The position numbers were made by a program, and so were the translations under genes. This document shows, one piece after another, positions 4,907 to 41,934 of a DNA stretch of 42,017 bases; position 1 is the first letter of the stretch; the number at the start of each line of letters is the position of its first letter. The stretch spans positions 1-42,017 of the forward strand of contig CAVFCJ010000002.1 of the NCBI GenBank assembly GCA_963620965.1, written 5' to 3'. The notes under the pieces are model-generated. The model saw nothing but the letters and a program-made list of their open reading frames with translations. It was not told where the DNA came from and made no database searches. The DNA comes from a bacterium. GTDB lineage: Bacteria > Bacillota > Clostridia > Christensenellales > CAG-917.

Positions 4907-4976
4907 AATTAATAATGAATAATTAATAATGAATAATTTTGGGTGGGCTCTGCCCACACCCGATTAAATATAAATC
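4907..4976. repeat. Short dispersed repeat cluster (family 1): AT-rich tandem unit TAATAATGAATAAT x2, a GGGTGGGC-TCT-GCCCACACCC hairpin and a GATTAAATATAAATC motif.
   Basis: Its reverse complement resembles 14048-14100 (AATATAAATC + GGGTGTGGG hairpin + AATTATTAATTATTAAT). The AT-rich part also resembles 16311-16344. Confidence 0.6.
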
Positions 4977-4988
4977 TGCAAGATTCGA

Positions 4989-5040
4989 TGCGCTAAATCG
5001 ATGCATAACGCGAAAGCACCCCCATGAATTTCACCCCTAA
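4989..5040. repeat. Left-half fragment (copy A') of the nested-hairpin element family.
   Basis: TGCGCTAAATCGATGCATAACGCGAAAGCACCCC matches the left arm of copy B (19802-19835). It then degenerates (GAATTTCACCCCTAATT versus GAATGGCAACCCTAATTT) and has no right arm. Confidence 0.6.
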
Positions 5041-5174
5041 TTAAAAAAACCGCGCTATTTGGATGAAGAACGCGAAAGGCACGGCTTGAATCAAAACCCA
5101 GTGTACATAGACGTACACGATTTTGAGGCAAGCCGTGCCTGACAAAGTTATTCGCCAAATAGCACGGTTTTTTA
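5041..5174. repeat. Nested-hairpin element, copy A (variant apex). It probably also acts as terminator for the dnaK-operon tail.
   Basis: Outer arms TTAAAAAAACCGCGCTATTTGG / CCAAATAGCACGGTTTTTTA. Mid stem GGCACGGCTTG / CAAGCCGTGCC. Apical hairpin GTGTAC-N6-GTACAC. The last 3 nt form the TAA stop of the HIT gene. Confidence 0.7.
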
Positions 5175-13820: not shown

Positions 13821-13896
13821 GCTAGTGTGGCTCAGCAGGTAGAGCAGCTGATTCGTAATCAGCAGGTCGCCGGTCCGAATCCGGCCACTAGCTCCA
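13821..13896 (+). tRNA. tRNA-Thr, anticodon CGU, with encoded CCA.
   Basis: Cloverleaf folded by hand. Acceptor GCTAGTG/CACTAGC, D stem GCTC/GAGC, anticodon stem GCTGA/TCAGC with loop TTCGTAA, T stem GCCGG/CCGGC with loop TCCGAAT, discriminator T and CCA. Confidence 0.93.
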
Positions 13897-14908: not shown

Positions 14909-16198
14909 TTATTTCAAGTTCACGTTGAGAGTGTAACTCGCGTTGTTGGCGGGGGTCGCTTTGGGTGCGGAATATATCATATAGTCCACGTCGCTCATAA
15001 GCGTAAGACTGTCGCAACTTATCTTGGCAAGCAAGGCGTTGTTGAGGTTGGTTGCCGAGCTCAATTTTTCTATGCCTTCCGCGTTCTTCTCGTTTGAAGA
15101 TTGCAATTTAGCAATGCTCTCGTTGGTTTTTGCTATATTGCTGTTTACGCTCTCGATTGCGGACATTTGCTCGCGATGCTGCTCTGTGAGTTGCGTGGAG
15201 AGTTTTGCAAAAGATCTATTGAGATCACCACGCAATTCGTTCATAGACATACGTATAGTAGAACTTATATTTTGTCCTGCCACACGAATTTCCTTGACGA
15301 TTTCGTCCGTTTGCACTCTGCGATCGACTTGTTGCAACGCCTCTTTAAGAGTGTCCGCTCTTCCCGTTTCAAAATAAAAAATGATAAGGTCGATATGCTT
15401 CCAATCGCGAATATCCAACACGGATTTGAATTGCGCAACGAGCCTATCGTACATATCTTGCGACAGTTTGGCTAGTCTCGTTCTGTCTTTCTCAAATACC
15501 GCTCTCTTCTCGTTGGCAATTGCAACGTATTTATCGAGAACCATTTTGGACGCGTTCTTTTCAAGTTGGTAACTTGCAAGCTCGTTTTTAAGCCCTCTTA
15601 TAGTCTTTTCGGTGCTCTTGATATTTGCTTTTTCTTCTTTATTCCTGGAACGATTTTCACCGAGCACCTTAATCGTCGATACGATAAGACCGATTATAAG
15701 GATAATCGCAAAAATGCCGATTGACGCGAAAACATAGTTTTTGTATTCCGCATTTGCAAAGGTCGGTTGCCATCTCTTGTCGTCATCGTAAGCACCCGAG
15801 GTCACGAAGTAGAAAAACCACGGTACAGCCGCCGCTACGAGGCCTAACGCTCCCCATATCAAAGTGTATAGGAAGATCTCGCGCGCATCCCACTTTGACA
15901 TAGCTCTACGGCAACTTTTTCCGTAAGATTTACTCCTTTTCTTACTCTCCTTATCGTTTTCGGCAGCCAAATAATCGTACGGTAATAGACTGTCGCAATA
16001 GGAAAGCCCTCTATTTACTCTGTCGATATCGTAATCGTGCTTTTCGTATTCGACGCGTTCAAGATCAACTTTGTCTAACGCTTCTTTATATACGCTTTCG
16101 CTTTGAGCAAGCTTGTCTTTCTCGACGGAAATAGCGGACATACCCGCACGAAGCGCGTACAAATCGCCGAGTATTTGATTTTTTTGTTCAGTATCCAT
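14909..16198 (-). CDS. Hypothetical coiled-coil membrane protein with two central TM helices.
   Basis: 429-aa ORF with AGGAG SD. TM segments IFLYTLIWGALGLVAAAVPWFFYFV and YVFASIGIFAIILIIGLIVSTI are flanked by long heptad-like charged regions. No family recognised. Confidence 0.7.
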   Translation of the reverse strand: MDTEQKNQILGDLYALRAGMSAISVEKDKLAQSESVYKEALDKVDLERVEYEKHDYDIDRVNRGLSYCDSLLPYDYLAAENDKESKKRSKSYGKSCRRAMSKWDAREIFLYTLIWGALGLVAAAVPWFFYFVTSGAYDDDKRWQPTFANAEYKNYVFASIGIFAIILIIGLIVSTIKVLGENRSRNKEEKANIKSTEKTIRGLKNELASYQLEKNASKMVLDKYVAIANEKRAVFEKDRTRLAKLSQDMYDRLVAQFKSVLDIRDWKHIDLIIFYFETGRADTLKEALQQVDRRVQTDEIVKEIRVAGQNISSTIRMSMNELRGDLNRSFAKLSTQLTEQHREQMSAIESVNSNIAKTNESIAKLQSSNEKNAEGIEKLSSATNLNNALLAKISCDSLTLMSDVDYMIYSAPKATPANNASYTLNVNLK

Positions 16199-16310: not shown

Positions 16311-16344
16311 GATTATTAATTGTTCATTATTAATTATTAATTTT
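16311..16344. repeat. AT-rich family-1 module overlapping the rluD 3' end.
   Basis: GATTATTAATTGTTCATTATTAATTATTAATTTT resembles 14082-14100 and the reverse complement of 4907-4940. It encodes the last residues (KINN) and the stop of rluD. Confidence 0.5.
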
Positions 16345-18632: not shown

Positions 18633-18768
18633 TAACCCCACGCAATGCGTAATTCTTCAATTATTCCGCAACTGCGCCATGGGCGCAATCGGGTGTGGGT
18701 GTCCCACCCTTTCGTCATTCAGAGCGACAGCGTGGGAATCAAGCGTAGCGTAATTCTTCAATTATTCG
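18633..18768. repeat. Family-1 repeat cluster in the yggS-sepF intercistronic region.
   Basis: 20-nt direct repeat GCGTAATTCTTCAATTATTC at 18647-18666 and 18748-18767. Hairpin TGCGCC-ATG-GGCGCA (18673-18687). GGGTGTGGGTGTCCCACCC hairpin (18691-18709). TTTCGTCATTCAGAGCGACAGCGTGGGAATCAAGCGTAGCG, homologous to 14000-14047. Confidence 0.65.
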
Positions 18769-18775
18769 GCACTTG

Positions 18776-19444
18776 CTAGGCAAGCGCAATCCTTTCCCCA
18801 AACAGCACTCTGCCAAGTCGTATCATATTCGAGCCGTGTTCGAGTGCGATTTTGTAGTCGTTCGACATTCCCGCCGACAAATATTCGACGTTTACGCCGT
18901 CTTGCTTTATGCTCTTTGCGTCCTCGTATATCCGTTGCAACTTGTCGTAAAGACGGGCAAGTTCCGTCTTGTCTTCGAGGTTGGGAAGCACGCTCATAAC
19001 GCCTTTTATCTCGATGTGCGGATAATCTTTCATACTTTGTATGAAATCGAGTGTTTCTTCGGGTCGTACGCCGCCTTTTGTTATCTCTGCGCCCATATTT
19101 ATCTCAACAAGGCATTTTTGAATCACGTCGTGTTTAACGGCTTGTTTTTCAATCTCTTTCGCCAGTTCCACCCTATCGAGCGAGTGTATCAAGTCCACTT
19201 TTCCGACGCCATACTTGACTTTGTTGGTTTGAAGTTGACCGATGATATGCCAGACGTACTTTTCGTCATAGTGTTCTACAAACTCTTGCACTCGGTTTTC
19301 GCCCAACACAAAATCGGGCGCAACTGACATAAACTTGTCTATCGTGTCTTTCGACTGCATTTTGCATGCCGCCACGAGGTGTACGTTTCTATCGTACTTT
19401 GCCACCTCGTCCCGCACTTTTTGAAGGTTGTCGAGTAGTATCAT
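18776..19444 (-). CDS. yggS: YggS/YlmE-family pyridoxal-phosphate homeostasis protein.
   Basis: 222 aa with WHIIGQLQTNKVK and LSAGMSNDY motifs. Lies next to sepF. Confidence 0.88.
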   Translation of the reverse strand: MILLDNLQKVRDEVAKYDRNVHLVAACKMQSKDTIDKFMSVAPDFVLGENRVQEFVEHYDEKYVWHIIGQLQTNKVKYGVGKVDLIHSLDRVELAKEIEKQAVKHDVIQKCLVEINMGAEITKGGVRPEETLDFIQSMKDYPHIEIKGVMSVLPNLEDKTELARLYDKLQRIYEDAKSIKQDGVNVEYLSAGMSNDYKIALEHGSNMIRLGRVLFGERIALA

Positions 19445-19477
19445 TTTCCGTTTTTAACTTTTACTTTTTAATGAAAG

Positions 19478-19768
19478 CTTCCCCCTTCCTCACGTGTTTC
19501 CCCTACCGCCGTTCCCCCTCTGCATACTTTGAGGGAACCCACGGCGTCCGCTCCGCGTGGGGCAACACTGACGCGATTGACTTCGTAGCAATCGCTAGTT
19601 CGTTGCAAGCAACGAACGGCAGACGGGCTGTTGGCAATACAAATCGGCTGAAAGCCGTGCCACTGCGCTTTGTGTGCCAGCTACGCACCCAAACGGCACA
19701 GTCGGACGGTACTAATCGTCAAGCTCGGCGCTCCCTTTTCTCGCCGCCTTGCGGCTCGTGTTCCGTCT
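19478..19768. ncRNA. Candidate structured RNA or unclassified repeat, copy 1 of a ~290-nt element. Strand undetermined.
   Basis: Near-identical to 36957-37246. Dense local hairpins: CCCACG..CGTGGG, GCGATTG-N9-CAATCGC, GTTCGTTGC-AA-GCAACGAAC, CGGCT-GAA-AGCCG and TGTGCC-N16-GGCACA. One compensatory pair change distinguishes the copies. No convincing ORF and no match to any RNA family I can recall. Confidence 0.45.
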
Positions 19769-19794
19769 CTGTATAGGCAGAGTCTACGCTTCAA

Positions 19795-19923
19795 TTAAAA
19801 CTGCGCTAAATCGATGCATAACGCGAAAGCACCCCTTGAATGGCAACCCTAATTTACTAAGCGTAAATGAGTTGACAGGCAAGGGGTGCTGACAAAGTTA
19901 GGCGCGATTTAGCGCAGTTTTAA
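19795..19923. repeat. Nested-hairpin element, copy B (archetype). Probable terminator of the ABC transporter gene.
   Basis: Outer stem TTAAAACTGCGCTAAATCG / CGATTTAGCGCAGTTTTAA (perfect, 19 bp). Mid stem GCACCCCTTG / CAAGGGGTGC. Apex GAATGGCAACCCTA-ATTTAC-TAAGC-GTAAAT-GAGTTGACA. The ABC stop codon (19920-19922) lies in the terminal TTTTAA. Confidence 0.75.
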
Positions 19924-22984: not shown

Positions 22985-23578
22985 TCAAAGCGTGTTTTGA
23001 TTCATCATCAAGGAAATGCCCTTACTCATTGCATCGGAAATATTCTTGCAAAGTTCCTCAAGCGAGAGCGAACTCTTGTGGTTAAACCAAATCTTGAAAC
23101 ACTCGGTCATACCTGCCGCCGCAAACGCAACGATGTATTTCGTTCTGCCCAAATCGGATGTCGAACCTTCGTGCGAGGAGAACCAGTGCATGTACGCACT
23201 TACGATTCTGTCGTTGATTTTGTCGAGAAGTTGCCCCGACGTGCTGGACGAAAGAATGTATCTGTTGTTGGCATCCTGTTTGAGAATCTCGTCAGCGAGC
23301 ATGCTCAAAAGCGGATACGGATTCTTGATGCTGTTGAGAATGTCCGTTTCGCTCATGATCTTGTCGATGCCTACGATTATAGCGTTTTCGATGTCCGTGC
23401 GAACATCGCCCACCGTGTCGTAGTACATATAAAATGTGCTGCGGGTGATGTTGGCTTTTTGCGTGAGTTCGCTTATGGTGATATCCGCCATATCCTTCTG
23501 TTGAACGAGTTGCTTGAACGCTTCGAAAATTGCGTTTTTGGTTTTGATTACTCTTTTGTCGATACCGCCGTTTTTCAT
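22985..23578 (-). CDS. TetR/AcrR-family transcriptional regulator, upstream of and co-oriented with the ABC transporter.
   Basis: 197 aa with an N-terminal HTH (ITISELTQKANITRSTFYMYY). Confidence 0.85.
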   Translation of the reverse strand: MKNGGIDKRVIKTKNAIFEAFKQLVQQKDMADITISELTQKANITRSTFYMYYDTVGDVRTDIENAIIVGIDKIMSETDILNSIKNPYPLLSMLADEILKQDANNRYILSSSTSGQLLDKINDRIVSAYMHWFSSHEGSTSDLGRTKYIVAFAAAGMTECFKIWFNHKSSLSLEELCKNISDAMSKGISLMMNQNTL

Positions 23579-23750
23579 TTTTTTCTTATCCTAATTCGAT
23601 TTTTATATTGCAAAATGTATCATATCATATATTTGTGTGATTTTCTATCGATTTATAAAATGTTAATAAAATTAATAAATTATTAAGGTTTGCGCACTCT
23701 ATAAATATAAATCAACAAAATCGAGGGCGAAATTGCCCGAAGGAGAATTT

Positions 23751-23930
23751 ATGAAAATAAAACGAGCAAAAAGGCACAACCTGCCCTTATCTCACAGCAA
23801 TCTAACGACTCACGAGAATCTGCGCTCGCACTTCGATCCCAACGGAAGTTATACGGGCGTCCCCGAAAAGCACGGTTATCCCGACGTCCCCGACGACGAA
23901 AAACCCGTGCAAGACGTAGACGACTTATGA
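23751..23930 (+). CDS. Small hypothetical protein (59 aa) with a basic N-terminus and acidic C-terminus.
   Basis: AGGAG lies 5 nt upstream of ATG 23751. MKIKRAKRHNLPLSH...DPNGSYTGVPEKHGYPDVPDDEKPVQDVDDL. Divergent from the TetR gene. No family recognised with certainty. Confidence 0.5.
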   Translation: MKIKRAKRHNLPLSHSNLTTHENLRSHFDPNGSYTGVPEKHGYPDVPDDEKPVQDVDDL

Positions 23931-23979
23931 GCAAAAATCGTCGCTGAGGCAACGGCAATCGTGGGCGATTGACTTTGCC

Positions 23980-24050
23980 GCAACGCTGTTTGAGCAATGT
24001 GCAACCCTTATTTACTGATAGTAAATGAGTTGACAGACGATGGGCGTTGC
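23980..24050. repeat. Core-only copy (C1) of the nested-hairpin element.
   Basis: Mid stem GCAACGC / GCGTTGC encloses GCAACCCTT-ATTTAC-TGATA-GTAAAT-GAGTTGACA. The outer arms are absent. Confidence 0.55.
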
Positions 24051-24082
24051 TGCAGTTATTTGTTTTATTTGAACTATGGAAA

Positions 24083-24201
24083 GTCGCGCCAAATAGATGA
24101 AGAACGAGAAAGAGCCACCCGAACCGCAACCCTAATTTACTTATAGTAAATGAGTTGTCGGATGGGTGGCTCTGACAAAGTAATTCGCTATTTGGCACGG
24201 C
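24083..24201. repeat. Nested-hairpin element, copy C2. It overlaps the 3' end of the M28 peptidase gene.
   Basis: Outer arms GTCGCGCCAAATAG / CTATTTGGCACGGC. Mid stem GAGCCACCC / GGGTGGCTC. Apex CGCAACCCTA-ATTTAC-TTATA-GTAAAT-GAGTTG. The right arm encodes the last codons (R-A-K, part of S) and the TAG stop of the gene. Confidence 0.7.
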
Positions 24202-25510
24202 TTTCGTCGATTTTGGAAATGACGCGCAACACCACGTCCAACCCCAATCCCACCGTGTCTGGCGAGAAACGTTCGGGTACGTCGCGATAGGTGTGATAAT
24301 AATCGCTCATGACGGGATTTTGTGCAGCGAAAGTGATGGATTTTACGCCCGCTTTTTGGAAAGGCGTGGAGTCGCAACCGCCGACGGGGTTTGCGATGTC
24401 GCCGGGTTTTTGGATGCCCGCTTCTCTCATTGACTCTTTGAACATACGTTCCAAATCCTTGTCGAAATGGGGGCAAAGCCAGCTGTCGCCGTGAATGACT
24501 TCAAAATGATCTGCGTCGGCAATGGAGTCAATGTTGATGTGGTAGGCATTGTCGAGCATACCGTCGTCTTTGTGTTTGCGGGTGAAAGCAATGGAGCCGC
24601 GAAGACCTGATTCTTCCGCACCGATGTTGCAGTCAACGATACGGCAATTTTTTGGCATTTTGTCGGGATTTTCCTTGTAATACTTCACTACTTGATACGC
24701 AATTGAAACGCCGGTTGCGTTGTCCATTGCGCCAGGAGAAGCGATTGCTTCCGTCTTTTCGTTGTACATCGTGAGCAAGAACGCACATACGATGACGACG
24801 GGCGACGAATACAAAATGATTTGCGAGAGGATGTCATATGCTTTTGCGACGTTCCTAAACGTTTCAACGCCCAAAGAATCCACAGAGCCATATTGCAAAA
24901 TCATAATGAGAATGAGTGCGGCTGCGCTTAATATCGTCACGACGCCGACCGCAATCGCGCCGAGTCCCAAGCGAAGCACGACGCCGACAAAGCCGAGCTT
25001 GTGCTGTGATGCGCTGAGTTTGAGCGTCCAACTGGTGTCGGTGTGACCCGAAAGGAAGATCGTATAATCGTATTTTCCGTCTTCGGGAAGAAGTTCCGCA
25101 TAAGTGTTGTGCGACACTTTGTGCTTGAAGCACCAGTCGAAGCATGTGTTGTACTTGAACACGCTGACAACGAGCCAAATCCAAGTGAACGCCATATACA
25201 TCGTGCATACGAAGTGGGTTGCAAGACCGGCATATGTCGAGATATGAGCAAGCATTGTCGCAATGACAGTGATAATACAACCGATTATGCCTGCCCAACC
25301 TGCGTAAGGCAGACCGCCTATGGACGCGTGGGGCGCAAAGACAAAACTCTCGGTGACGGGGTTTAGTCCGATTTCTTTGAGTTTGTCCGACATATACTCG
25401 TGGTACTTCTTCTCGTTGTTCGAGCCGGGAAGGCGCGGGCCTATCTCGTTTGCGGCGTATTCGACCATTTCATAGGCTTCATCGCCGTACTTTTTGAGTT
25501 CGTCTCTCAT
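24188..25510 (-). CDS. M28-family metallopeptidase with transmembrane helices intercalated in the catalytic domain.
   Basis: 440 aa. M28 ligand motifs in order: SGHTDTS, GAMDNATG, GAEESGLRGS, YHTYRD. Hydrophobic helices lie before the H-x-D motif (two) and between it and the bridging Asp (at least two). Confidence 0.75.
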   Translation of the reverse strand: MRDELKKYGDEAYEMVEYAANEIGPRLPGSNNEKKYHEYMSDKLKEIGLNPVTESFVFAPHASIGGLPYAGWAGIIGCIITVIATMLAHISTYAGLATHFVCTMYMAFTWIWLVVSVFKYNTCFDWCFKHKVSHNTYAELLPEDGKYDYTIFLSGHTDTSWTLKLSASQHKLGFVGVVLRLGLGAIAVGVVTILSAAALILIMILQYGSVDSLGVETFRNVAKAYDILSQIILYSSPVVIVCAFLLTMYNEKTEAIASPGAMDNATGVSIAYQVVKYYKENPDKMPKNCRIVDCNIGAEESGLRGSIAFTRKHKDDGMLDNAYHINIDSIADADHFEVIHGDSWLCPHFDKDLERMFKESMREAGIQKPGDIANPVGGCDSTPFQKAGVKSITFAAQNPVMSDYYHTYRDVPERFSPDTVGLGLDVVLRVISKIDESRAK

Positions 25511-33661: not shown

Positions 33662-33792
33662 TTAAAAACTTCGATATTTAGATGCATAACAAGGAAGCGC
33701 CCCTTGACTGGCAACCCTAATTTACTATCCGTAAATGAGTTGACAGTCAAGGGGTGCTAACAAAGTTAGGCGCTATTTAGCGCGGTTTTTTA
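33662..33792. repeat. Nested-hairpin element, copy D.
   Basis: Right arm CTATTTAGCGCGGTTTTTTA; the left arm TTAAAAACTTCGATATTTAG is partly degenerate. Mid stem GCGCCCCTTGAC / GTCAAGGGGTGC (one G-T pair). Apex TGGCAACCCTA-ATTTAC-TATCC-GTAAAT-GAGTTGACA. Its last 3 nt are the stop codon of the 41-aa ORF. Confidence 0.7.
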
Positions 33793-36936: not shown

Positions 36937-36956
36937 AAAACAATCAAAAATTAAAA

Positions 36957-37246
36957 CTTCCCCCTTCCTCACGTGTTTCCCCTACCGCCGTTCCCCCTCT
37001 GCATTCTTTGAGGGAACCCACGGCGTCCGCTCCGCGTGGGGCAACACTGACGCGATTGACTTCGTAGCAATCGCTAGTTCGTTGCACGCAACGAACGGCA
37101 GACGGGCTGTTGGCAATACAAATCGGCTGAAAGCCGTGCCACTGCGCTTTGTGCGCCAGCTACGCACCCAAACGGCGCAGTCGCTTGTACTGTCCGTCAA
37201 GCTCGGCGCTCCCTTTTCTCGCCGCCCTGCGGCTCGTGTTCCGTCT
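36957..37246. ncRNA. Candidate structured RNA or unclassified repeat, copy 2 of the ~290-nt element.
   Basis: Aligns end to end with 19478-19768. Five single-base differences, two of which form a compensatory pair, plus one replaced 15/16-nt patch. It starts 20 nt after the U32 stop codon with no terminator between them. Confidence 0.45.
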
Positions 37247-37289
37247 GCTAAATTGCACATTCCGTTTATAAGTACATCCTTAATAATTA

Positions 37290-37418
37290 TTAAAACCGCG
37301 ATATTGAGATGAAGAACAAGAAAGAGACATCCGAATGGCAACCCTAATTTACATAGCGTAAATGAGTTGACAAGCGGATGCCTCTGACACAGTTATTCGC
37401 TCAATAGCGCGGTTTTAA
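37290..37418. repeat. Nested-hairpin element, copy E. Probable terminator of the 41934..37415 operon.
   Basis: Outer arms TTAAAACCGCGATATTGAG / CTCAATAGCGCGGTTTTAA. Mid stem GAGACATCCG / CGGATGCCTC (one A-C). Apex GAATGGCAACCCTA-ATTTAC-ATAGC-GTAAAT-GAGTTGACA. The stop codon at 37415-37417 lies inside the terminal TTTTAA. Confidence 0.75.
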
Positions 37419-39926: not shown

Positions 39927-40243
39927 TTTTCACCCTCGTTCTTTGCCGCGTTCTGCTTGTTCTTTTTGCCGTGGCGAAGTTTCCTCTGCACGTTTTTATC
40001 AGCATTTTTTGTGGTGCTTTTGATTGCCTTATTTTCGGCGTTATTTGCACAATCGGACGTTTTTGTCTGCGTTTCCCTTACATAAACGTACTTTTCGAGT
40101 CGTTTGATGTCCGCTTTGTGTCTCGTGTAAAGCATAAGCGACATAACGGTTACGACAACAAAAAGCATACCCGTAAGCGCAAGCAAAAACGCAAAGAAGA
40201 AGTTTTGAAGATTGAACGCTGCACACATCAAACCGTACGTCAT
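39923..40243 (-). CDS. Small membrane protein (106 aa), hypothetical.
   Basis: Start ATG 40243 overlaps the upstream stop (ATGA) and its own stop overlaps the CDF start (ATGA), suggesting translational coupling. One or two TM segments (FFFAFLLALTGMLFVVVTVMSLML) and a basic K/N-rich tail. Confidence 0.55.
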   Translation of the reverse strand: MTYGLMCAAFNLQNFFFAFLLALTGMLFVVVTVMSLMLYTRHKADIKRLEKYVYVRETQTKTSDCANNAENKAIKSTTKNADKNVQRKLRHGKKNKQNAAKNEGEK

Positions 40244-41934
40244 ACCAAATACCTCTTTTGCTTTTTCCACGCCACGCAAAGAGCGACGACGGTCAACGCA
40301 AGCACGCCGCAGATTGCAATGAGCGCGATGTTTGCAGGTGCAAACGGCATTGTCTCACTGCTGCCCTCTATAAAGCAAATGACGCTATATTGCTTTGACA
40401 AAACCGCACTTTTCTCGCTTATATCGAAAATCTCGTCCTTGCCGTAAATCGCAAAATATTCGACTGTTTCGGGCGCGTTTTTCCATGTTATCGAAAAAGC
40501 TTCTTCAGGCGTAACGTCGTTTCCGTCGCCGTCCACAAACTCGAATTTGTATGCGGCATATATGGGTCTGCCGTACTTGTTTTCAACCTCTATTCTGCTC
40601 GCTTTTACGGTTACGTCCATAAGGCCGCTTCCGAAAAACACATAGAAAATTTGCCCGTCGTTGAGGACGACTTCCACTTGCTTTGCGTACACGAAATATC
40701 TGCCGTAGTTTGCAAATTGGCTTTCGTGGCTATGGCAATCCGGCGTGTAATTCGGATTTGAAAATACGATATACGAGCGATACATCGTGCTCGGCACATC
40801 CTTGTCCGCTTCGTACTCGAAACTTACGCCGAGATCTTCTTCGGCGTCGCCGCAGGCAAGCGCGGATACGATTTGAAATTTTGGAATTGCAAACGCTTCG
40901 CCCACAAGCGAATACGCGTCGCGTATGCGAACGTAAAGCGTGCGAGGACTGACATCAACTTGCACAGCGATTTTTTCAAGCGGCATATAGTTGCCTTTTT
41001 CGGGAATAAAATCGAAATACACGATATAGCCGCCGTCTTTAACGCCCAAATATGTCGATTTCGGGTCGGCGACGCTTGTAAAATCAAAGTCCGTTTGCTC
41101 TGCGCTCGGCAGGAAACTGCCCTTTACTTTCACGTCGCAAAAATCCGTCGATTCGAGCGAGTTTGCCATATCCGACAAACTTGCACCGTACACAAAATTC
41201 TTTTTCGGTTGCTTTTGTGCCGAAATTTCCGCTTTTTCTATGGTGCAAGCAAATGTTTGTCCGTATCTTACGGATTCGTATTCAAACGGCACGAGTTGCT
41301 CGTTGACCTCGTACCTAATCTTCTCGGTTGCGACGAGGCGCACTTGGTATTCGCCCGCATCAACGCCTCTGCCGAACAAATAGCCGCCCGCCGTGTAGTC
41401 GGCATATGCTCTTTGCCATTCGCCGCCCTCTTTTTTATACTCAAAAAAAACGCTCGGCGAAGATATTATTTGCAAAACTCTTGCGCCAAAAAATACGCCT
41501 TGCGAGCCGTATTTTGCCGTGTTTTGCTCGACCGAAGAAACTATGTCGGGAAGTTTGAAGGATATATCGCAATAGTTTGCAATGATAAAATCGTCCGTAT
41601 CGGGAACTTCCACATCCGAATCGCGCAGCCAAGTTTTTATTGCCTCGTACATTTTGAACGCAACGCAATTATGGTTGTTTGCCTCTATAAACGCGCCTCG
41701 GCACTCTGCGCCGTCAACGTTTTGCCCGTTCAAAGACAACATCCAGTTTTCGCCGTCGGCGGTTGCTATGACGAACGACGGCAACGCCGCATCATCTGTC
41801 GCCGCGATCGAAGCGTTTTCTGCCTCAGCAACCAAAACATCGCGCGGATACAATTCGAGCAACGCACAAACCGCCGTGCCGAGCACGACGAGCAAGCAAC
41901 ATATAAGCACGATTGTCATCTTCTTTGCGGACAT
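40240..41934 (-). CDS. Hypothetical surface protein with an N-terminal signal anchor and a C-terminal TM anchor.
   Basis: 564 aa with GAGGG SD. N-terminus MSAKKMTIVLICCLLVVLGTAVCALL. C-terminus IALIAICGVLALTVVALCVAW-KKQKRYLV. No domain recognised. Confidence 0.7.
   Translation of the reverse strand: MSAKKMTIVLICCLLVVLGTAVCALLELYPRDVLVAEAENASIAATDDAALPSFVIATADGENWMLSLNGQNVDGAECRGAFIEANNHNCVAFKMYEAIKTWLRDSDVEVPDTDDFIIANYCDISFKLPDIVSSVEQNTAKYGSQGVFFGARVLQIISSPSVFFEYKKEGGEWQRAYADYTAGGYLFGRGVDAGEYQVRLVATEKIRYEVNEQLVPFEYESVRYGQTFACTIEKAEISAQKQPKKNFVYGASLSDMANSLESTDFCDVKVKGSFLPSAEQTDFDFTSVADPKSTYLGVKDGGYIVYFDFIPEKGNYMPLEKIAVQVDVSPRTLYVRIRDAYSLVGEAFAIPKFQIVSALACGDAEEDLGVSFEYEADKDVPSTMYRSYIVFSNPNYTPDCHSHESQFANYGRYFVYAKQVEVVLNDGQIFYVFFGSGLMDVTVKASRIEVENKYGRPIYAAYKFEFVDGDGNDVTPEEAFSITWKNAPETVEYFAIYGKDEIFDISEKSAVLSKQYSVICFIEGSSETMPFAPANIALIAICGVLALTVVALCVAWKKQKRYLV

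Follow-up and report, generated by a model that had tools for sequence, protein, structure and literature searches.

A duplicated hairpin-rich element near yggS as a probable member of a modular repeat family in gut Clostridia

Directly upstream of yggS in a Christensenellales genome lies a sequence of about 290 nt, packed with hairpins, that recurs elsewhere on the same contig, and the question this locus raises is what such a folded unit is doing in two places at once. An earlier note, made from the letters of the window alone (the whole stretch analysed, 42,017 nucleotides of contig CAVFCJ010000002.1), described a two-copy element that could be a minus-strand leader of yggS or a C-rich small RNA on the plus strand. 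"Two-copy" turns out to hold inside the window only; beyond it, the element occurs in dozens of copies per genome. We consider it probable that both copies in the window are interspersed repeats, modular, rich in hairpins and non-autonomous, from a large family in one lineage of gut Clostridia; our best reading places this family with repeats such as BOX and bcr and has it diversify as hairpins are swapped.

Anatomy of the two window copies

The two direct repeats (19478-19768 and 36957-37246) are about 97% identical when compared within the window. As the earlier note had it, and as our alignment reproduces, they match over their full length except for five single bases and one 15/16-nt patch, the latter holding a 1-nt indel. 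Their flanks are unrelated to each other, and an identity spanning ~290 nt cannot be chance. Similarity between the copies already sets in ~8 nt before these coordinates, at 19470 and 36949 (repeat family D2), and the unit defined at family level extends rightward past 19768 and 37246. Copy 1 finishes 33 nt upstream of the yggS start codon, and copy 2 begins 21 nt past the stop codon of a U32 peptidase gene. Some of the window's genes are housekeeping genes and the others lack a Pfam match; none is related to mobile elements.

Read on the plus strand, copy 1 opens with an A/T-rich 5' flank (aatgaaag, 19470-19477) matching the conserved upstream motif TAAATTAAAA of the family, which is the 3' end of a module we call Y, the remainder of Y being missing here. 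There follows a CU-rich leader, CTTCCCCCTTCCTCAC (19478-19493), unpaired in the consensus structure and common to the 5' variants A, A2, B and C of the family. Consensus structure and pairing statistics delimit a closed 5' domain at 19494-19568, with helices GTGT/ACAC, CCCC/GGGG, CGCCGT/ACGGCG, CCCTC/GAGGG and CGC/GCG; helices 1-4 of this domain are 99.6-100% paired in the family alignment and include two pairs changed on both sides. A long-form cassette (19570-19661) then stands in for the 40-nt mid hairpin of the 237-nt form and comprises the hairpins GCGATTG..CAATCGC (19573-19595) and GTTCGTTG..CAACGAAC (19598-19617) and an alternative mid hairpin, GGCA..CGGCTGAAAGCCG..TGCC (19618-19661); in the cassette of one related locus (L187), GCTCG..CGAGC is compensatory to GTTCG..CGAAC.

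Three further hairpins complete the plus-strand unit. H6 (TGTGCC..GGCACA, 19673-19700), which contains the covarying pair singled out by the earlier note, is swapped among at least five sequence types within the family. H7 (CGTC..GGCG, 19717-19730) is defined in the family alignment, where one of its pairs (columns 248:258) reads UG in 32 members and UA in 14 on the plus strand. H8 (GCCGC-CTT-GCGGC, 19743-19755), which together with the 3' tail TCGTGTTCCGTCT occupies 19743-19768, shows GC/AU and CG/UA double changes among family copies. Beyond it on the same strand lies a spacer (..aggcagagt..cttcaa.., 19769-19796) that appears to be a shortened module X; this assignment comes from a by-eye match to right flanks carrying ggcagagt..ataagaacgccttgaa, the spacer having been missed by a fuzzy pattern search. 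The next 125 nt (19797-19921), directly past the stop codon of an ABC/FtsX gene, are a long imperfect palindrome, D1, which forms a repeat family of its own.

Copy 2 (36949-37246, plus strand) has the same anatomy of flank, leader, 5' domain, long cassette, H6, H7 and H8, with H6 reading TGCGCC..GGCGCA. It is followed on the plus strand by a module X (37247-37291) with the exact family core GCACATTCCGTTTATAAGTA at 37255-37274, and then by a D1 repeat (37292-37416) directly past the stop codon of a metallophosphoesterase gene.

A dispersed family of exchangeable modules

In species-representative genomes, the 19-mer GAGGGAACCCACGGCGTCC occurs in more than 109 stretches among the matches listed, and the family is present in 102 of the 109 loci read, drawn from 12 assemblies. 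Per assembly, the MAG loci read give lower bounds of 41, 15, 13, 10, 9, 9 and fewer copies, and a 17-mer from the 3' domain led to 35 further loci in metagenomes. The carriers are related uncultured human-gut Clostridia, and the copies are all intergenic, in unrelated contexts and in both orientations. Many of the 19-mer matches sit at contig ends, every one of the 27 unpaired 5' domains is at the edge of a fetched stretch (in many cases a contig end), and a Logan contig identical to the window breaks off 26 nt into copy 1. A blastn search of phage and plasmid records returned no match to the element, and viral contigs scanned for exact occurrences of two patterns from the 5' domain and one from D1 gave none either. 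A full-text literature search on the element's sequence gave no match and one on Christensenellales plus "structured RNA" no papers; the repeat family has apparently not been described so far.

The alignments show the unit to be modular: an optional Y, the CU-rich leader, the closed multi-helix 5' domain, hairpin cassettes and a 3' domain of three hairpins, then optional downstream modules (X, Z) and often the second repeat, D1. The 5' domain exists as four sequence variants, found behind module Y. Among 93 pairs of 5' and 3' modules, the unit falls into length classes of 228-241 nt (~69 pairs), 286-293 nt (12) and 314-522 nt (10), the longest pair measuring 522 nt; the common form is 237 nt, and both window copies represent the rarer long form of ~290 nt. 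Swaps of cassettes are directly visible in the family alignments. The first 100 nt are near-invariant in the genome set, which is largely a matter of ascertainment because the pattern used to fetch the genomes lies inside that region. An independent, 3'-anchored metagenome sample contains four divergent 5' variants, and we have withdrawn the idea of strong selection on these 100 nt.

The same modularity accounts for the patch that distinguishes the window copies. The earlier note had taken it for a local replacement, whereas the family alignments show a swap between two segment variants, GCTTGTAC.. and GGACGGTAC.., that are found family-wide; judged from these alignments, copy 1 is a recombinant of two family variants. 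In place of a dedicated RNA gene present in two copies, the analysis finds a dispersed family whose ends vary and whose internal hairpins can be exchanged.

At orthologous loci the element is mostly stable. Nearly all orthologous locus pairs have it in both members, and across species it is kept at some orthologous sites and differs at others. At the site orthologous to copy 1 in a related MAG (L008) the element is inverted, another relative (L053) has yggS with no element upstream, and two loci (L108 and L043) carry the long and the short form at the same orthologous site. Across the orthologous loci compared we found no clean empty site. One candidate (L105 against L103) was rejected because an unrelated 70-nt hairpin takes the element's place there, and exact ends and target cannot be defined from it. 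Since clean empty sites, target duplications and terminal repeats were all looked for without success, mobility can be inferred only from copy number and from differences in presence and absence.

Base pairing and the folded strand

Two of the five substitutions between the window copies, as the earlier note observed, change the partners of one predicted pair from T-A to C-G, in TGTGCC (19673-19678)...GGCACA (19695-19700) against TGCGCC...GGCGCA. The change is real, and so are the two loop substitutions it reported (CAAG/CACG in the hairpin at 19598-19617, and CTT/CCT in GCCGC..GCGGC). The reading of the paired change as a compensatory event between these two copies does not survive comparison with the family, in which both pair states pre-exist: among 46 members, columns 201:226 are C-G in 23, U-A in nine and U-G in one. 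Since both states were already present and copy 1 is a recombinant, the pattern in the window points to conservation of the hairpin at the level of the family plus exchange between copies.

At that level the evidence for structure is strong. Base-pair cells of the family alignment are 96.5% paired, compared with 30-54% in slid controls, and seven pairs show changes in both partners where shuffles give 2.2, none of 500 shuffles reaching seven. Independent double changes also occur within hairpin types (ACGGGCG/CGCCCGT to GCGGGCG/CGCCCGC, ACGGACG/CGTCCGT and GCAAGCG/CGCTTGC), and the orthologous copies at L053 and L058 differ by a double compensatory change of a whole hairpin. The hairpins are thus shown to be maintained by compensatory substitutions. 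Compensatory change thus exceeds the controls, and the earlier note's broader proposal of a conserved, non-coding, single-stranded structure is supported by the family alignments.

Which strand folds is less immediate. Consensus folding alone gives the G-rich minus strand a lower raw energy and more G.U pairs, and the 5' apical hairpin looks more continuous on that strand. We settled the call by composition-corrected z-scores and by the transitions tolerated in defined helices. In 23 of the 24 copies the plus strand has the better folding z-score, with a mean of -2.86 where the minus strand has -1.74, and in helices M1/M2 and H7 G.T pairs far exceed A.C pairs. Because of these G.U patterns and z-scores the C-rich plus strand, one of the two options left standing by the earlier note, is the better-supported folded strand.

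The fold resembles no catalogued RNA. At gathering score the whole window yields tRNA only. Between 19380 and 19960, at E<=10, the single Rfam match is a chance one to mir-666 (17 bits against a 70-bit cut-off), and ten related loci match no family. The mismatch to known RNA classes that the earlier note had noticed is upheld by this search of Rfam 15, from which matches to RNase P, tmRNA, SRP, 6S, T-box, riboswitches, RsaE, HEARO and group I/II introns are among those absent.

Leader, transposon derivative, small RNA or interspersed repeat

The gene on the 3' side of the copies is convergent to the element in 37 of 51 cases (p = 0.002), the plus strand is antisense to the flanking genes in 22 cases against nine, and D1 lies within 200 nt downstream of 17 of 59 copies and upstream of five of 59. 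No neighbouring gene recurs among the loci examined. Nor does the flanking DNA offer a partner: ~1.6 Mb of fetched loci contains no multi-copy ORF and no TnpA, TnpB or IscB-like gene, no RAYT gene is seen in the fetched stretches around the matches, and the same stretches hold no autonomous IS that shares the ends, no module pair being more than 522 nt apart. The ends themselves (CTTCCCCCTTCC.. and ..GTTCCGTCT) are non-complementary and form no terminal inverted repeats, inspection of the flanks of 67 copies revealed no consistent direct repeat that could be a target-site duplication, and six-frame translations compared with 5.8 billion proteins gave no match and no embedded transposase end. 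The earlier note was right that ORF, terminal inverted repeat and target duplication are absent, and the refuting case it had named, an element that proves to be the non-coding end of an IS or intron already known, did not turn up. With terminal inverted repeats and target duplication missing, and no autonomous IS in the fetched stretches, the element does not fit a classical MITE.

Against this background, a role for copy 1 on the minus strand, as a 5' leader or cis-regulator of yggS, is very improbable, and so is a small protein encoded by the element. The 33-nt distance to the yggS start codon invites the former reading, but copy 2 is found in an unrelated context, as are more than 100 relatives, the close relative L053 and the inverted site in L008 uncouple element from gene, and folding is less unusual on the minus strand than on the plus. 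The coding reading starts from a plus-strand frame that is open across the entire element in both window copies; the 15/16-nt patch shifts that frame between the copies, further 1-nt indels occur in family members, and there is no protein or Pfam match. Family distribution and frame-breaking indels refute both in practice. We also regard as improbable a non-autonomous derivative of an IS200/IS605-type element (a PATE) that would be moved by a Y1 transposase in trans and might act as a guide-RNA scaffold for TnpB or IscB. Such an origin would agree with the absence of terminal inverted repeats and target duplication, the conserved 5' and variable 3' flank, the strand-specific structure with hairpins close to both ends, the variable middle between conserved left and right parts (as after internal deletion) and the orientation bias relative to genes. 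Yet no copy among the 93 paired ends exceeds 522 nt, the ~1.6 Mb searched holds no candidate transposase, nuclease or multi-copy ORF, and the absence of protein relatives by six-frame translation means that no tnpB 3' end is embedded; neither ωRNA (HEARO) nor any other Rfam family matches, and no variable, guide-like segment abuts the conserved ends. The conserved 5' flank TAAATTAAAA is moreover the tail of module Y, within the inserted unit, and probably not a 4-5 nt target. The orientation bias runs the wrong way as well: in IS608 and ISDra2 the placement of the top strand on the lagging-strand template should give a gene-orientation bias opposite to the mostly antisense one found here.

A more serious contender, though still a doubtful one, is a family of multi-copy plus-strand small RNAs of ~240-350 nt, independently transcribed from a putative start at the leader (CTTCCCCC) and pairing through the CU-rich leader with Shine-Dalgarno-like purine tracts of mRNAs; it widens the small-RNA option of the earlier note to a whole gene family. 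The plus strand is the better-folding one, the leader CUUCCCCCUUCCUC is unpaired in the consensus and shared by 5' variants A, A2, B and C, and in many copies a -10-like TAAATT ends ~4 nt before the first base of the element. The upstream gene is divergent in about half of the copies, so that a plus-strand RNA there would need its own promoter, and genes of the window have GGAGG or GAGGAA-type ribosome-binding sites complementary to the leader, a complementarity expected by composition alone for any CU-rich tract. On the other side stand the dozens of copies per genome, with a 5' extent (with or without Y) and a 3' extent (X, Z, D1) that vary, and the lack of any matching Rfam model. Inspection of module Y found no -35 at workable spacing and no sigma-54 or ECF pattern, and scans found neither a sigma-70-like promoter upstream of either window copy nor a plus-strand intrinsic terminator inside the unit. 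We hold it unlikely that these repeats form a new class of structured RNA (~240-350 nt), expressed independently and in high copy, whose conserved, unpaired CU-rich leader and closed multi-helix core would act in trans, for example by titrating ribosome-binding sites or an RNA-binding protein, or which would itself be the intermediate of spread, as in a SINE-like element; either way, the hairpin cassettes would be tolerated expansion segments.

The preferred reading, a family of modular interspersed repeats, suggests the following course. Copies would have spread into A/T-rich intergenic sites, either through a trans-acting function encoded elsewhere or by recombination, and ongoing gene conversion among them would both homogenise and diversify the family, the apparent compensatory change and the 15/16-nt patch of the window being probable products of such conversion. 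Any effect on the cell would be local and exerted through the folded transcript, the structure perhaps acting at the 3' ends of genes as an insulator or barrier, in many cases jointly with the adjoining D1 hairpin, and with no dedicated regulation of yggS. The multi-helix core and CU-rich leader are conserved beyond what is seen in most selfish repeats, and a host function is possible. The TAAATT a few bases upstream of many copies would fit independent transcription.

Whatever its function, the family has practical consequences. With so many matches sitting at contig ends, it evidently breaks the short-read assemblies of these gut MAGs; its open frame across the whole unit generates spurious ORFs; and a copy could be mistaken for a regulatory RNA of whichever gene adjoins it. 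The copies, of which there are more than 100, also provide a well-populated alignment of a ~240-nt structured element, in which four variants of the core and numerous natural exchanges of hairpins are represented; it is useful for asking how repeats spread with neither terminal repeats nor a linked transposase and for testing whether the host makes use of the folded plus strand as an RNA. If that RNA is expressed on its own, it would rank among the most abundant non-coding RNA gene families in any bacterial genome.

Compared with known systems, the unpaired C/U-rich tract able to pair with ribosome-binding sites recalls the C-rich small RNAs of Firmicutes (RsaE/RoxS and LhrC), among which LhrC has sibling copies. 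These are RNAs of ~100 nt in 1-7 copies with defined promoters and terminators, RsaE/RoxS being single or few-copy and terminator-ended; the element described here is 237-290 nt long, present in dozens of copies with variable ends, and has no Rfam match. With IS200/IS605 PATEs, reRNA and ωRNA/HEARO it shares strand-specific folded ends, a length of 200-300 nt and the lack of terminal inverted repeats and target duplication, but not a partner transposase or nuclease, a guide-like end, a HEARO match or the expected gene orientation. The REP, BIME and REPIN repeats of Proteobacteria are likewise intergenic mosaics of short structured motifs, enriched at gene 3' ends or between convergent genes, and the 125-nt imperfect palindrome of D1 resembles a REPIN in form; REPs are palindromes of 20-40 nt, whereas the unit here is an asymmetric multi-hairpin one of 237-290 nt.

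The bcr repeats of the Bacillus cereus group, reviewed in Delihas 2011 (PMC3184786), are interspersed elements of 100-400 nt; for bcr1 that review, with reference to Kristoffersen et al. 2011, describes transcription and an RNA structure preserved by compensatory changes. The likeness, taken from description only, is that of interspersed Firmicutes repeats of similar size with compensatory base changes, in a host of a different phylum-level lineage. According to the same review bcr1 has flanking 5-bp direct repeats, of which we see none at our element, and bcr5 (310 nt) flanks a resolvase/transposase cluster, a link with no counterpart here. A parallel in organisation is with the BOX repeats of Streptococcus pneumoniae, known alongside RUP and SPRITE (Croucher et al. 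2011, PMC3049150). Both families are high-copy intergenic repeats of Gram-positive bacteria limited to few related species, built from conserved end modules and variable internal ones, extensively structured by prediction and free of an encoded transposase; both are mostly stable at orthologous sites with slow turnover, and BOX is thought to affect co-transcribed genes structurally. This likeness is one of organisation only, boxA, boxB and boxC having been compared by description and not by sequence. In high copy number, intergenic location, narrow lineage, conserved ends and variable interior the family agrees with BOX, and it departs from it in its larger unit, whose leader is CU-rich and whose 5' domain is closed and multi-helix, and in how the interior varies: BOX changes the number of one boxB unit, while here alternative hairpins are exchanged for one another.

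Copy number and modular architecture

Reading and aligning the two regions of the window, 19478-19768 (copy 1, upstream of yggS) and 36957-37246 (copy 2), bears out their earlier description as direct repeats: five single-base differences and one 15/16-nt patch separate them, a repeat finder places the onset of similarity at 19470/36949, and their flanks are unrelated to each other. The premise that they form a two-copy RNA with a compensatory change does not hold, as they belong to a high-copy family in which both pair states are standing variants. An exact 19-mer from the element, GAGGGAACCCACGGCGTCC, matched more than 109 stretches in a collection of species-representative genomes that excludes the window's own genome, whose nearest relatives share 87-95% identity with it in the genes they have in common. 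Seven loci proved to be chance matches in high-GC Actinobacteria and similar genomes, without a family member; the other 102 loci read carry the family and are spread over 12 uncultured gut Clostridia assemblies, with record titles including uncultured Clostridia/Clostridiales MAGs, Christensenella sp. UBA6880, and Firmicutes bacterium CAG:238 and CAG:475. Copies per assembly reach at least 41, 15, 13, 10, 9 and 9. Bins titled Anaeroplasmataceae bacterium (CAVKUX01: loci L012, L018, L020 and others) and Phascolarctobacterium succinatutens (CAVBBF01: L027, L036, L045 and others) hold 9-15 copies; because the family and orthologous flanks are common to these bins and the Clostridia MAGs, both names are probably mislabels. 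Many 19-mer matches lie at contig ends, and a Logan contig identical to the window breaks off 26 nt inside copy 1, which is the signature of an assembly-breaking repeat. All 27 of the 5′ domains without a 3′ partner likewise lie at the ends of fetched stretches, many of these being contig ends.

When 5′ and 3′ modules were paired (93 pairs), the commonest length was 228-241 nt (mode 237; about 69 pairs), with 12 pairs at 286-293 nt, both window copies among them, 10 at 314-522 nt and none longer. The long-form cassette (19570-19661, plus strand, in copy 1) substitutes a different mid hairpin for the common 40-nt one and adds two further hairpins. Further optional parts are an 84-nt insert within the 5′ domain of some copies, an upstream module Y (..TCTACAAGAGT..GGCGTGAACTCTAAATTAAAA) and downstream modules X (..GCACATTCCGTTTATAAGTA..) and Z; X is present at 37255-37274 beyond copy 2, and a shortened variant, judged by eye, appears to lie downstream of copy 1. 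A second scan, of metagenomes, used the 3′-domain anchor TCGCCGCCTTGCGGCTC, which carries no bias toward any 5′ half, and gave 35 further loci. Four quite different 5′-domain sequences (A, A2, B and C) occur in this sample, all preceded by module Y and sharing the CU-rich leader and a pyrimidine/purine closing helix, YYYCCCC/GGGGRRR; the near-invariant 5′ 100 nt of the 19-mer sample is therefore largely a matter of ascertainment. Some loci show tandem or nested arrangements (L030 6174-6727, L200 1095-1466, L067 6336-6400, L089 4804-4880), including a pair of full units linked through X and Y across 89 nt, a unit whose 3′ domain directly precedes another mid hairpin and 3′ domain, and 25-nt leader stubs upstream of full copies.

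One plus-strand reading frame is open through both window copies. The patch shifts this frame between them, Pfam gave no match and a search with all six frames against 5.8 billion proteins found nothing, so that the element is not coding, in agreement with the earlier note.

Base pairing, folded strand and probable exchange between copies

The paired change described earlier is exact (TGTGCC..GGCACA in copy 1, TGCGCC..GGCGCA in copy 2), and two of the other substitutions do fall in hairpin loops. The earlier note had tied an RNA role to covariation among homologs, and such covariation is found: on a curated plus-strand structure of 42 pairs in 46 copies, 96.5% of cells are paired, against 30-54% with partners slid, and seven pairs change on both sides, against 2.2 in shuffles, none of 500 of which gave as many. 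The original pair is C-G in 23 of these copies, U-A in nine and U-G in one. In the wider set its hairpin, H6 (19673-19700 in copy 1), takes at least five unrelated sequence types, all in one and the same place in the element. Within these types double substitutions have arisen independently of one another: ACGGGCG/CGCCCGT to GCGGGCG/CGCCCGC, ACGGACG/CGTCCGT or GCAAGCG/CGCTTGC; TGCGTGGC/GCCACGCA to TGTGTGGC/GCCACACA; and TGTGCC/GGCACA to TGTGAC/GTCACA. The 3′ hairpin H8 changes from GCCGC/GCGGC to ATCGC/GCGAT and GTCGC/GCGAC, and the long-form hairpin GTTCG..CGAAC of the window is GCTCG..CGAGC at locus L187. The double changes within hairpin types argue that the pairing itself has been under selection.

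Raw consensus folding energy is lower for the G-rich minus strand. With correction for composition, 23 of 24 copies have the better z-score on the plus strand (means -2.86 versus -1.74), as does the window copy alone (-2.33 versus -1.18). The transitions common in helices M1/M2 and H7 leave G.T pairs when read as plus strand and A.C mismatches when read as minus strand, a pattern that cannot tell RNA from single-stranded DNA. From the z-scores and the G.T pattern we conclude that the predicted folded strand is the C-rich plus strand, with the caveat that, in the 5′ domain, the apical hairpin is interrupted less on the minus strand than on the plus strand.

How the two window copies came to differ can be read against the family. 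Both states of the H6 pair are standing variants, as are both versions of the patch (GCTTGTAC.. and GGACGGTAC..). Copy 1 joins a type-A left marker (CTGCGC) to a type-C hairpin and right marker, which marks it on sequence grounds as a recombinant. In two species with flanks 96-97% identical (L053 and L058), orthologous copies differ by a whole-hairpin double-double change in H8, and L108 and L043 carry the long and the short form at one orthologous site. Gene conversion between copies, with hairpins kept whole, would explain these patterns better than stepwise compensatory mutation in place.

Genomic setting and neighbouring repeats

Every copy is intergenic. Of 51 genes on the 3′ side, 37 are convergent to the element (p = 0.002); genes on the 5′ side show no orientation bias (30 versus 28), and where both flanking genes run in one direction the element is antisense to them in 22 cases and sense in nine. 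This bias may reflect selection against plus-strand transcription or structure entering the downstream gene. Beyond orthologues there is no recurrent neighbouring protein family, and roughly 1.6 Mb of fetched loci contain no multi-copy ORF. The window holds no mobile-element-related genes, only housekeeping genes (hrcA, dnaK, dnaJ, prmA, lspA, sepF, yggS, serS, leuS, tmk, holB and others) or ORFs without a Pfam match. Among the latter, a 429-aa ORF at 14909-16198 (-) failed to align as DNA to the equivalent region in the two closest relatives, L053 and L058, which have a copy of the element there instead; others lie at 22985-23578 (-), 23749-24198 (-) and 40240-41934 (-). A tRNA gene at 13821-13893 (+; 68.8 bits) is the sole Rfam match in the window.

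A separate repeat family, D1, follows both window copies and lies within 200 nt downstream of 17 of 59 copies and upstream of five. Its window members are at 4989-5171, 19797-19921, 24000-24060, 24080-24204, 33665-33789 and 37292-37416, with 113 matches in fetched loci and none in Rfam. D1 is a long imperfect palindrome of roughly 125 nt, with an outer stem (AAAACCGCGCTA../..TAGCGCGGTTTT) and an inner stem that both covary between copies, around a core GCAACCCTAATTTAC-N5-GTAAATGAGTTG or the alternative AAAACCCAGTGTACATAGACGTACACGATTTTG; it often adjoins stop codons, and its appearance suggests a bidirectional terminator or a REPIN-like element. An A/T-only intergenic repeat, ATTATTAATTNTTCATTATTAATTATTAATT, occurs at 4907-4937 (-) and 16312-16342 (+) and in related MAGs (L016, L044, L053, L058, L083), at several loci after a GC-rich hairpin (GGGTGTGGG..CCCACCC). 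A further repeat type, made up of short hairpins in tandem that end in ..ATTTCAC.. (for example gcaatttcacttgcg..cgcaaatttcatgcacg..), is found at L053 6525-6800, in right flanks of the element in L048 and L072, and in UBA6880 at the yggS-upstream position that copy 1 occupies in the window. Between sepF and yggS there is a 29-nt direct repeat, with its two units (18647-18675 and 18748-18776) 101 nt apart and 90% identical.

Nature of the element and comparison with known repeats

The earlier suggestion that copy 1 is a yggS 5′ leader fails on comparison, since UBA6880 has other hairpin repeats and no element upstream of yggS, and copies lie in varied intergenic sites. At the site orthologous to copy 1 in the CAG:238 MAG the element is inverted, with Y between it and D1, and UBA6880 and CAKQLT01 carry a copy beside an rluD-like gene where the window has none. 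The Rfam check that had been proposed matched the element to no family, and no paper was found to contain its sequence. The element is not a classical MITE, because it lacks terminal inverted repeats and a target duplication and the stretches fetched around its copies hold no autonomous partner. An IS200/IS605-type origin is attractive on paper, given this lack of terminal repeats and duplications, the conserved 5′ flank and the strand-specific hairpins, but the conserved flank belongs to module Y, neither transposase nor nuclease is present in the window or the fetched loci, there is no variable guide-like end, and IS608 and ISDra2 would lead one to expect the reverse orientation to genes.

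We consider it somewhat probable that the element is a non-autonomous structured interspersed repeat: it has high copy number, modularity, conserved plus-strand folding and no linked gene, and it is kept at some orthologous sites and different at others. The main rival, that the copies are genuine plus-strand sRNA genes with a CU-rich seed, we judge unlikely; no sigma-70-type promoter was found upstream of either window copy, nor a plus-strand intrinsic terminator, and the sole promoter-like feature is a TAAATT resembling a -10 box, which in many copies precedes the first base of the element by a few bases. As an interspersed repeat, the element would have spread into A/T-rich intergenic DNA through a function encoded elsewhere or by recombination, with gene conversion between copies presumably ongoing, and, if transcribed, its folded RNA might act locally at gene 3′ ends jointly with D1. 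Around its conserved core the family displays an unusually rich natural variety of swapped hairpins, and it bears on how repeats without terminal inverted repeats or a linked transposase spread. Without being filed as a member of either group, the element resembles in its organisation both the BOX elements of pneumococcus (PMC3049150) and the bcr repeats of the Bacillus cereus group, which are transcribed and conserve their structure (PMC3184786).
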